Assembly (NCBI RefSeq): GCF_044647545.1
Contig: NZ_CP172818.1
Origin: Escherichia coli
GTDB lineage: Bacteria; Pseudomonadota; Gammaproteobacteria; Enterobacterales; Enterobacteriaceae
Length of the DNA stretch: 64,000 nt
Direction: 5' to 3' (one strand)
How positions within the stretch are numbered: the stretch's first letter is position 1; each line of letters opens with the position of its first letter. The notes below the pieces were generated by a model, which ran no database searches, was not told the origin of the DNA, and was given only the letters and a program-made list of their open reading frames with translations. Positions 6,709-9,425 of the stretch are shown here, piece after piece. The translations under genes were made by a program, and so were the position numbers.

Positions 6709-7980
6709 ATGCAGTATGAAGATGAAAACGGCGTGAATGAACCGTCACGCCGACGTTTACTGAAAGGGATTGGCGCGCTGGCGCTGGCAGGAAGTTGTCC
6801 GGTAGCGCATGCTCAAAAAACGCAAAGTGCGCCGGGGACGCTTTCACCGGATGCGCGCAGTGAAGCGCAGCCGTTTTATGGCGAACATCAGGCGGGTATT
6901 CTGACGCCGCAGCAGGCGGCAATGATGCTGGTGGCGTTTGATGTGCTTGCCAGCGATAAAACCGATCTTGAACGGTTGTTTCGCTTGTTGACTCAGCGTT
7001 TTGCTTTTCTGACTCAGGGCGGAGCGGCACCAGAAACGCCAAATCCGCGCCTGCCACCACTCGATTCCGGCATTCTTGGCGGCTACATTGCGCCCGATAA
7101 TCTCACCATAACGTTATCGGTGGGTCACTCATTGTTTGATGAGCGCTTTGGCCTTGCGCCACAGATGCCAAAAAAGTTGCAGAAGATGACGCGTTTCCCT
7201 AACGACTCGCTGGATGCGGCGTTATGTCATGGTGATGTGTTGCTACAAATTTGCGCCAACACCCAGGACACGGTGATCCATGCGCTGCGCGATATCATCA
7301 AACACACGCCGGATTTGCTCAGCGTGCGCTGGAAGCGGGAAGGGTTTATTTCCGACCACGCAGCGCGTAGTAAAGGCAAAGAGACGCCGATAAATTTGCT
7401 GGGCTTTAAAGACGGCACCGCCAATCCCGATAGCCAGAATGCGAAGTTGATGCAAAAAGTGGTGTGGGTGACGGCAGATCAGCAGGAGCCTGCGTGGACA
7501 ATCGGTGGCAGCTATCAGGCAGTACGCTTGATTCAGTTTCGGGTGGAATTTTGGGACAGAACGCCGCTGAAAGAGCAGCAGACGATATTTGGTCGTGATA
7601 AGCAAACCGGTGCGCCGCTGGGAATGCAGCATGAGCATGATGTTCCCGATTACGCCAGCGATCCGGAAGGGAAGGTGATCGCGCTGGACAGCCATATTCG
7701 GCTGGCGAATCCCCGCACGCCAGAGAGTGAGTCAAGTCTGATGCTGCGTCGTGGCTACAGTTATTCACTGGGCGTCACCAACTCCGGGCAACTGGATATG
7801 GGGCTACTGTTTGTCTGCTACCAACACGATCTGGAAAAAGGCTTCCTGACAGTACAAAAAAGGCTCAATGGCGAAGCGCTGGAGGAATACGTTAAACCCA
7901 TCGGCGGCGGTTATTTTTTTGCGCTGCCGGGAGTGAAGGACGCGAATGATTATCTCGGAAGCGCGTTATTGCGGGTTTGA
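6709..7980 (+). CDS. efeB: Dye-decolorising (DyP-type) haem peroxidase EfeB, Tat-exported
   Basis: ORF 423 aa; twin-arginine signal [16 protein letters not shown]; recognised as EfeB/YcdB. Confidence 0.92.
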
Positions 7981-7991
7981 ACGACGCAAAT

Positions 7992-8096
7992 ATGCCCGAT
8001 GCGCAGGTTTATCGGGCATGAGTTTTGTGCACAAATTATTAATCACTTGTAGGTCGGGTAAGGCGTTCGCGCAGCATCCGGCAAACACGAGGCACA
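7992..8096. repeat. REP/BIME-type extragenic palindromic repeats
   Basis: Imperfect palindromes tgcccgatgcgcaggtttatcgggca and gtaggtcgggtaaggcgttcgcgcagcatccggca, typical of E. coli REP units. Confidence 0.7.
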
Positions 8097-8145
8097 TTTT
8101 ACCAGCCCAGCGAATCCTGCTGAAAGCACACAGCTTTTTTCATCA

Positions 8146-8163
8146 CTGTCATCACTCTGTCAT
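8146..8163 (+). promoter_or_regulatory. Pho box (PhoB binding site) of the phoH promoter
   Basis: CTGTCATCACTCTGTCAT is a two-direct-repeat CTGTCAT match to the Pho box consensus. Confidence 0.75.
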
Positions 8164-8452
8164 CTTTCCAGTAGAAACTAATGTCACTGAAATGGTGTTT
8201 TATAGTTAAATATAAGTGAATATATTGTTGCAATGAATGCGAGATCTGTTGTACTTATTAAGTAGCAGCGGAAGTTCCCGGCAGTGATAGTCAGTCACTA
8301 TGGAGATCGCGGATGGTAACGTCCTGTTCTGGACAATGTTTTGTTAAGCAAGGCTCCACCACTCGCGGAGATTTCTCCTCCGGTAGCAACTTCGTCACTC
8401 TGTATTTTTCTCACTTCCTCTCTTTACTCGTGTTACCGACGCCGCAAACGGT

Positions 8453-9376
8453 GTGCGTAGCCGTTTTTCGGCATTTTATCCAAAAGCAAACTATGGCTTA
8501 CAAGGAAGCCAACCCTCTGATGTTCGTGCGCATAATCGCGCTGCCAACGGCGCGTGTGATGAATACAAACAACTCAAGGTGCTCTCCATGGGAAGACAAA
8601 AAGCAGTGATCAAAGCTCGTCGCGAGGCAAAACGTGTGCTGAGACGGGATTCGCGCAGCCATAAGCAGCGTGAAGAAGAATCGGTCACCTCGCTTGTGCA
8701 GATGAGCGGCGTAGAAGCCATTGGTATGGCCCGCGACAGTCGCGATACTTCGCCCATCCTCGCGCGAAATGAAGCGCAATTGCACTATCTGAAGGCTATT
8801 GAGAGTAAGCAGCTGATATTCGCCACGGGCGAAGCTGGGTGCGGAAAAACCTGGATCAGCGCAGCAAAAGCGGCAGAGGCCCTGATACATAAGGATGTCG
8901 ACAGGATTATCGTCACCCGTCCAGTTCTGCAAGCCGATGAAGATCTTGGCTTCTTACCTGGTGATATCGCAGAAAAGTTTGCTCCCTATTTTCGCCCGGT
9001 CTACGATGTGCTGGTCCGGCGCTTAGGGGCTTCCTTTATGCAGTACTGCCTGCGACCAGAAATAGGGAAGGTGGAAATTGCGCCGTTCGCCTATATGCGT
9101 GGACGTACCTTTGAAAATGCAGTCGTCATTCTTGACGAGGCGCAGAATGTGACTGCCGCGCAAATGAAAATGTTTTTAACCCGCCTCGGGGAGAACGTGA
9201 CGGTTATCGTCAACGGTGATATCACGCAATGCGATTTGCCTCGCGGCGTGTGCTCCGGATTAAGTGACGCGCTGGAACGTTTCGAAGAGGATGAAATGGT
9301 CGGGATCGTCCGATTCGGTAAAGAGGATTGCGTACGTTCGGCACTTTGCCAACGTACGCTACATGCATACAGTTAA
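8453..9376 (+). CDS. phoH: PhoH, phosphate-starvation-inducible ATP-binding protein (start uncertain; ATG at 8588 would give 262 aa)
   Basis: ORF track 307 aa; Walker A motif GEAGCGKT; C-terminal ...CQRTLHAYS; recognised as E. coli PhoH. Confidence 0.88.
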   Translation: MRSRFSAFYPKANYGLQGSQPSDVRAHNRAANGACDEYKQLKVLSMGRQKAVIKARREAKRVLRRDSRSHKQREEESVTSLVQMSGVEAIGMARDSRDTSPILARNEAQLHYLKAIESKQLIFATGEAGCGKTWISAAKAAEALIHKDVDRIIVTRPVLQADEDLGFLPGDIAEKFAPYFRPVYDVLVRRLGASFMQYCLRPEIGKVEIAPFAYMRGRTFENAVVILDEAQNVTAAQMKMFLTRLGENVTVIVNGDITQCDLPRGVCSGLSDALERFEEDEMVGIVRFGKEDCVRSALCQRTLHAYS

Positions 9377-9425
9377 GTGTATTATCGGCGCAGAGCCCGG
9401 GCGAACCGGGCTTTGTTTTGGGTGT

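Follow-up and report, generated by a model that had tools for sequence, protein, structure and literature searches.

A candidate cis-regulatory leader between the Pho box and the conserved start codon of phoH in Escherichia coli

The phoH locus and its upstream promoters

The window, which is the whole 64,000-nucleotide (64-kb) stretch of E. coli DNA analyzed here, carries phoH in the gene order efeO-efeB-phoH-pgaD-pgaC. Positions 7981–9400 are 100% identical to strain FDAARGOS_497, and the region is present in 5418 of 5426 complete E. coli genomes. All features described below are on the plus strand. The efeB-phoH spacer is unlike that of MG1655 over positions 7981–8130, with an efeB terminator-like hairpin at 7991–8020 and a weak REP/naRNA4-like match at 8052–8088.

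The Pho box of the phoH promoter P1, the site for the activator PhoB, occupies 8146–8163 (CTGTCATCACTCTGTCAT). It is composed of two CTGTCAT repeats with an 11-bp periodicity and a 4-nt spacer (CACT), which is less A/T-rich than the textbook consensus. The original prediction had described this box as a strong match, and it is indeed the sole match without mismatches to CTGTCATNNNNCTGTCAT in the 64-kb window; nine others have three mismatches each. By our own arithmetic, an exact match at 14 positions is expected about 0.0005 times per 128 kb of two-strand sequence. In MG1655, a PhoB ChIP-seq peak at 1084845, upstream of phoH, carries the motif TGTCATCACTCTGTCATC (PMC10294691); converted by coordinate offset, the peak falls at about position 8166 of the window. 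Deletion of phoB reduced phoH RNA from 37,076 to 13,375, a 2.8-fold PhoB dependence, and lowered sigma-70 occupancy at phoH by more than 2-fold (PMC10294691). Since the box in the window is, base for base, the MG1655 ChIP-seq site, it is the known PhoB-binding Pho box of phoH P1, and there is nothing new in the box itself. The K-12 P1/P2 region is the same locus with the same 18-bp box, and only 5 positions separate 8110–8335 from MG1655. Of 83 species, 54 have a Pho-box site with up to three mismatches in front of phoH, and in 47 species its distance to the core start is unchanged; a control scan within the CDS gave zero matches.

In Pho promoters, the box replaces the −35 element and lies about 10 nt upstream of the −10 element. 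This usual geometry would place the core promoter and start region of P1 at 8164–8190, with transcription probably starting at about 8186–8190. The −10 element is ambiguous, with weak candidates at 8174–8179 (GAAACT), 8177–8182 (ACTAAT) and 8179–8184 (TAATGT). Positions 8176–8180 are partly conserved across species, and a consensus promoter scan reported no site for P1.

A second promoter, P2, is PhoB-independent according to Kim et al. 1993, as cited by Park et al. 2013 (PMC3798270). Park et al. footprinted an ArcA-P site of ~60 bp (ATGTCACTG...TTGCAAT) at −80 to −21 of P2, and ArcA represses phoH 25-fold (PMC3798270). The published site matches window positions 8181–8234 at 53 of 54 nucleotides, and this ArcA-P binding region contains four direct repeats, at about 8184, 8206, 8217 and 8228. 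The footprint overlaps the inferred P1 start and the −35 element of P2; this overlap, together with the 25-fold repression, suggests that phosphate and redox signals are integrated at phoH. Computed from the footprint coordinates, transcription from P2 would start near 8258. The P2 promoter then spans 8228–8258, with a candidate −35 element at 8228–8233 (TTGCAA) and a candidate extended −10 element at 8246–8254 (TGnTGTACT). Two motifs conserved across 80 species, TGTTGCA (8226–8232) and TG.TGTACTTA (8246–8256), plausibly represent these two elements. The consensus scan picked TTTATA-16-TATATT at 8199–8226 rather than the hexamers assigned here. A strong constitutive P2 fits the modest 2.8-fold PhoB dependence.

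The long distance between the box and the gene had been taken to imply either an unusually long leader or an intervening second promoter. Such a promoter exists, but P2 (start at ~8258) lies upstream of an ATG at 8313, and the leader up to the core start at 8588 is not shortened by it. The Pho box seems far away because about 400 nt, comprising P2 and a conserved leader, precede the conserved core start.

Two start codons, a frameshift and two E. coli haplotypes

The possible phoH starts had been placed ~300–440 bp downstream of the box, in agreement with the distances counted from the box end, 290 nt for 8453 and 425 nt for 8588. The open reading frames are also as first listed, namely a GTG-started 307-aa frame at 8453–9376, with an in-frame ATG at 8588, and a 98-aa frame at 8313–8609 in another frame. 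The advice to treat the phoH start annotation with care was well founded. In the curated record of MG1655 itself (b1020), phoH has 354 aa and begins with the counterpart of ATG 8313, whereas PGAP chooses the counterpart of ATG 8588, giving 262 aa, in both the window strain and a K-12 derivative.

The conserved, selected PhoH starts at the internal ATG 8588, which settles this long-standing annotation conflict for the 262-aa form. The core coding sequence (8588–9376) encodes a PhoH P-loop ATPase, with PF02562 covering residues 57–261 of the 262-aa product (E=1.5e-76). The NCBIfam equivalog NF007827 spans residues 101–353 of the 354-aa K-12 form. Core identity is 92–100% across Enterobacteriaceae, and in each of the 80 tblastn matches the alignment begins with the first residue of the 262-aa form. 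The core ribosome-binding site (8576–8590), consisting of a Shine-Dalgarno (SD) sequence AAGGUG at 8576–8581, a 6-nt spacer and ATG 8588, is invariant across species.

The leader has a ribosome-binding site of its own at 8302–8315, with the SD sequence GGAG at 8302–8305 and a 7-nt spacer before ATG 8313, from which about 275 nt of leader extend to ATG 8588. The open reading frame that follows (8313–8609) has 98 codons and ends with TGA at 8607–8609; counted from the A of the core ATG, this stop is 22 nt downstream. It is the frameshifted homologue of the 92-codon N-terminal extension of K-12 PhoH. Compared with MG1655, E69 and others, the window has a 1-nt deletion near 8410, because of which the reading frame of ATG 8313 no longer matches that of the core; upstream of 8588, the core frame stays open for only 67 codons.

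The deletion lies in a 121-nt patch (8336–8456) in which the window and MG1655 have 19 differences per 100 nt, compared to 0–2.2 per 100 nt in the flanks and core. The two sequences represent deeply diverged E. coli haplotypes at 8336–8456, with the window strain carrying the one not found in K-12. As a result of the 1-nt deletion and the divergent patch, the window strain lacks the 354-aa reading frame of K-12. Among 5426 complete E. coli genomes, 1939 (36%), with Nissle 1917 among them, have an exact copy of the 91-nt window-type allele (8390–8480), and ~3413 (about 63%) have the K-12-type allele; roughly one E. coli strain in three is unable to make the 354-aa form. The 354-aa frame is intact in all five K-12-type loci inspected (MG1655 and four sampled matches). 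Leader and core are fused in K-12 and O157:H7, and unfused in Nissle 1917 and the window strain. A third allele is carried by E69, E. whittamii and E. albertii; its frame-changing indel, also of 1 nt, lies in the T-run at 8463–8467 instead. The E69-type allele is nearly absent from the complete E. coli genomes, with 16 partial matches.

The GTG at 8453, which had been considered a possible phoH start, is not conserved. In unfused species, the core frame is open for 6–82 codons upstream of 8588 with no conserved start, and we rejected this candidate. A 307-aa "PhoH" starting at this GTG is present in public protein collections (cluster P0002, 1357 members). The 307-aa call is spurious, an artefact that gene callers produce on the unfused haplotype. 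A programmed −1 frameshift in the T-run 8405–8409, which would restore the fusion, was also rejected, as the run provides just five U's and has no canonical heptamer.

Conservation of the leader reading frame and RNA structure

We fetched phoH loci from 80 species, and the leader survey covered 81 Enterobacteriaceae species plus the window. The SD and ATG (GGAGATCGCGR-ATGGT) are kept in all 81 species examined, and the leader ATG opens a frame of at least 84 codons in every one of them. This frame is fused to the core in 56 species, resulting in proteins of 352–356 aa with 90–94 extra codons. Twenty species and the window have an unfused leader ORF of 97–98 codons that ends 22 nt past the core ATG, and in five species an 84-codon ORF ends 23 nt before it. 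The leader stop is therefore no more than 23 nt from the core ATG in 26 of 26 unfused Enterobacteriaceae sequences. The unfused state is also found in most Citrobacter and Salmonella and in the three Yersiniaceae examined. The original prediction regarded the 98-aa ORF as probably non-coding. Its start is the SD and ATG annotated in K-12, and because these and a long ORF are kept in 81 of 81 species, the ORF is probably translated, although its peptide is unconserved.

The alternative frame of the leader contains stops in most fused species (median of 35 open codons) and is open for 111–122 codons in unfused ones. By this comparison, the frame in use is the one without stops. Mononucleotide shuffles yield a stop-free 92-codon frame in 1.4% of cases. 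In the variable part of the leader, 21 of 21 clusters below 75% identity are stop-free, where composition alone predicts a probability of 0.08–0.19 for each. The joint composition-only probability of 21 open clusters is about 1e-18 when the clusters are treated as independent, a value that overstates the case because the clusters are related.

Despite this maintenance of the frame, the encoded peptide evolves almost neutrally. Entropy at the three codon positions is 0.84/0.81/0.84 in the extension, compared to 0.13/0.06/0.92 in the core, and dN/dS is 0.87 for the leader extension versus 0.034 for the core. No Pfam or NCBIfam family was found over the extension. The segment 8164–8587, for which the original prediction called for a conservation analysis across Enterobacteriaceae, keeps the SD and ATG, the open frame and covarying hairpins, while the peptide drifts. 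A small ORF from ATG 8493, in the alternative frame, was rejected as a coding candidate, since it has no codon periodicity in any frame and the hairpins H3 and H4 (see below) explain its conservation. A small-ORF Ribo-seq supplement has no phoH entry.

The same leader layout is found in three Yersiniaceae (Rahnella, Yersinia ruckeri and Serratia symbiotica). They have ATGGTAAAGTCC or a close variant, preceded by a G/A-rich SD-like motif (GGGGAG, GAGGAT or GGAGGAT), and a Pho-box-like site lies further upstream. The ORFs have 133, 100 and 98 codons and end at −63, −21 and −177 relative to the core; the one ending 177 nt before the core start is that of the symbiont S. symbiotica. The phoH neighborhood differs in the Yersiniaceae, where a Na/Ca exchanger gene takes the downstream place of pgaD, and the 3′ hairpin module is shared.

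RNA structure was analyzed on a 38-species alignment, which was not fitted to any structure, using RNAalifold and explicit pair counting. Compensatory changes are found at 17 leader pairs. They amount to 99 compensatory cells in the alignment, compared to 35.8 ± 5.5 in shuffles, and none of 500 shuffles reaches 99. Cells are paired in 97% of cases versus 28–50% with partners slid, a control that flatters the structure because the structure was predicted on the same alignment.

The predicted hairpins extend from just upstream of the leader SD to the core SD. H1 (8283–8299, AGUGA/UCACU), located immediately 5′ of the leader SD, is paired in 89% of cells with weak covariation. A small hairpin right after the leader start codon (8321–8334, GUCC/GGAC), predicted by RNAalifold, is 99% paired with one compensatory change, and by eye it is retained as GUCC..GGGC in Rahnella and Y. 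ruckeri. H2 (8363–8384, CGGAG/CUCCG) has a helix at 8363–8369/8379–8384 with three of six pairs compensatory, for example GGUA/UACC and GGGG/CCCC. H5 (8438–8475) is a two-part hairpin in which 8438–8444/8469–8475 enclose 8449–8452/8460–8463, with compensatory changes at seven of seven and three of four pairs, respectively. The block at 8480–8587 is nearly invariant. It contains H3 (8494–8511, UGGCUU-ACAAGG-AAGCCA; helix 8494–8499/8506–8511), which is 99% paired and displays an AAGGA that is invariant in Enterobacteriaceae; a compensatory variant, GGUCU..AGACC, is seen by eye in Rahnella. H4 (8531–8561) consists of 8537–8543/8548–8554 closed by 8531–8533/8559–8561, with three to four compensatory pairs (25 cells) and 95–99% pairing. 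The best-supported helices are both parts of H5, 8537–8543/8548–8554 of H4 and 8363–8369/8379–8384 of H2.

RNAalifold also predicted two long-range pairings, one joining the surroundings of the leader start to the bases immediately past the core ATG (8305–8310/8606–8611), the other joining a conserved UCAC[CU] motif to the core SD (8396–8399/8578–8581). All bases involved are invariant, which puts both pairings beyond covariation testing. Folded as a single sequence, 8258–8640 has no extra stability over shuffles (z = −0.53). A scan of 7950–8750 against Rfam 15 (E ≤ 10) gave no match in 8100–8650; outside the leader, it returned a weak naRNA4/REP-like match and a C0465-like match upstream and a chance lysM match. 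The H3 loop (ACAAGGA) resembles both an SD sequence and a CsrA site. For CsrA control through the GGA of this loop, no support was found in the CsrA CLIP and transcriptomics supplements consulted, from which phoH is absent, or in a literature search.

Between H2 and H5 lies a variable tract (8385–8437) that is C-rich and G-poor and holds the 1-nt deletion near 8410. Its mean composition is 35% C and 9% G, and C is more than twice as frequent as G in 38 of 38 species, though the sequence is unconserved. By composition, the tract is rut-like, as would be expected of a Rho loading site. Alternatively, its C-richness could reflect a Ser/Thr/Pro-rich disordered tail. Published Term-seq data list an MG1655 3′ end at 1085072 in two growth conditions. 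This end corresponds to about position 8393 of the window, 9–11 nt downstream of H2, and its label as "internal" to phoH is due solely to the 354-aa annotation. The Rho-termination table of Adams et al. has no entry for phoH.

A possible regulatory role and its alternatives

Judging from the sequence comparisons, we consider it fairly probable that this segment is a translated, structured regulatory leader, present as a separate upstream ORF (uORF) in the window strain and acting through translational coupling or Rho. Transcripts from P1 and P2 would both carry the SD and ATG 8313. In the window strain, this ATG would open the 98-codon uORF and the core would initiate at 8588, with the leader serving as a cis-acting expression module rather than a protein domain. 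What evolution seems to have kept is the leader ribosome-binding site, a frame (whichever it is) open to ~20 nt of the core ATG, the hairpins and the C-rich, G-poor tract, such that selection would preserve translation through the leader while the peptide drifts. Ribosomes traversing the leader would be required for PhoH synthesis. They may shield the rut-like tract from Rho, an untranslated leader being subject to Rho termination followed by 3′ trimming back to H2. In addition or instead, they may unfold the structured 3′ module and, beside the core start, either terminate or read on, a coupling route supported by the 26 unfused Enterobacteriaceae sequences, none of which has its leader stop more than 23 nt from the core ATG. 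In the fused haplotype, the same ribosomes would run on into the core, giving a long isoform and an internally initiated short one, whereas unfused alleles would give the 262-aa protein alone. Against this model count the absence of phoH from the Rho-termination table, the unremarkable stability of the single-sequence fold and the S. symbiotica leader ORF, which stops 177 nt short of the core.

The K-12 annotation suggests a different reading, in which the 354-aa form is the functional PhoH and the window strain suffers from a damaging N-terminal frameshift, with a truncated protein made from 8588 or 8453. The curated record has this length, the fusion with its 90–94 extra codons is kept in 56 of 81 species, and a 39-kDa phoH product was reportedly detected by Kim and colleagues in 1993. 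We find this reading unlikely, given that the extension has a dN/dS of 0.87, no codon periodicity and no family, whereas the core is 92–100% identical throughout. Moreover, 36% of E. coli, most Citrobacter and Salmonella and 3/3 Yersiniaceae are unfused, and the frame after the frameshift stays open to the core start, unlike that of a dead remnant. The chance that the frame difference from K-12 is merely a sequencing or assembly error in the window is negligible: it is a single-base difference beside a T-run, but 1939 independent complete genomes, Nissle 1917 among them, share the very same 91-nt allele, which lies in a haplotype 19 per 100 nt apart from K-12.

The lack of peptide conservation, combined with strong RNA covariation, would suit an untranslated structured 5′ UTR in which the ORF behind ATG 8313 is incidental. 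This is very improbable in view of the invariant ATG and its SD (GGAG) at ideal spacing, and of ORFs of at least 84 codons in 81 of 81 species, compared to stop-free frames in 1.4% of shuffles or 8–19% from composition. Furthermore, stops interrupt the unused frame in most fused species, where a median of 35 codons is open. A third promoter inside 8313–8587 would produce a short-leader mRNA for the 262-aa protein and leave the Pho box in control of the long transcript or isoform only. The nearly invariant block at 8480–8587 could hide such a promoter, and the PhoB dependence of total phoH RNA is just 2.8-fold. However, H3, H4 and the core SD account for the invariant block, and the consensus scan of 8313–8650 found no sigma-70-like site. 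P1 and P2 alone are mentioned in the available text on phoH promoters (PMC3798270). We regard a third promoter as improbable.

If the leader is indeed a translated regulatory element, a more general proposal can be made, albeit tentatively. The phoH leader may be a cis-regulatory module of Enterobacteriaceae and some Yersiniaceae, an RNA of ~300 nt in which translation in any frame is required and 1-nt indels repeatedly switch the ORF between uORF and N-terminal extension, with E. coli itself split 36:63. PhoH is regarded as an RNA-dependent ATPase or helicase-like protein, and the conserved hairpins might even serve it as a binding site for autoregulation. The gene is widely used as a marker in bacteria and phages, and we know of no function for it. 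A long ORF that seems to be selected for being translated, around covarying hairpins and a rut-like tract, points to post-transcriptional control of phoH. Naturally fused (K-12, O157:H7) and unfused (Nissle 1917, window) strains make the leader model directly testable.

Translated leaders or uORFs that act via Rho access or coupling are exemplified by tnaC-tnaA, mgtL-mgtA and toiL-topAI. The phoH leader resembles them in its conserved ribosome-binding site and ORF, with translation and not the product apparently selected, in the C-rich, G-poor tract inside the ORF and in the stop near the main start. It differs from them in that its ORF is far longer (84–133 codons compared to ~10–30), no sensing codons or arrest motif were recognized in it, and it can fuse in frame to the main gene. 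The toiL-topAI leader appears in PMC12121999. The phoH arrangement may also be compared with coupling by overlap of stop and start codons. Such coupling is classical at operon junctions such as trpE-trpD, where the overlap is usually 1–4 nt. The leader stop within 23 nt of the core ATG in 26/26 unfused Enterobacteriaceae sequences is reminiscent of these junctions, but the overlap in the window is 22 nt and no product of the upstream cistron is conserved.

The Pho box and the P1/P2/ArcA architecture are already known, and the dual start has been touched on by Ribo-RET work. A search of the literature that could be searched gave no mention of a leader or uORF at phoH, of structure in its RNA, of a polymorphism between fused and unfused states or of the upkeep of an ORF in either frame. 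In Meydan et al. 2019 (Ribo-RET), phoH has an in-frame internal start with conserved synonymous sites around it, the cause of which is left open there. The window shares with such two-isoform genes the conserved internal ATG 8588, its SD and frozen synonymous sites, and differs from them in that its upstream start is out of frame, giving a uORF and a main ORF. Synonymous sites are frozen in the first 10–20 codons of the core, matching the phoH synonymous-site conservation described there; third-position entropy is 0.18 in codons 1–10 versus about 1.0–1.3 elsewhere. Other third-position dips occur in the core at codons 31–40 (entropy 0.34) and 161–170 (0.45), compared to about 1.0 elsewhere, and may reflect additional RNA-level or codon constraints.
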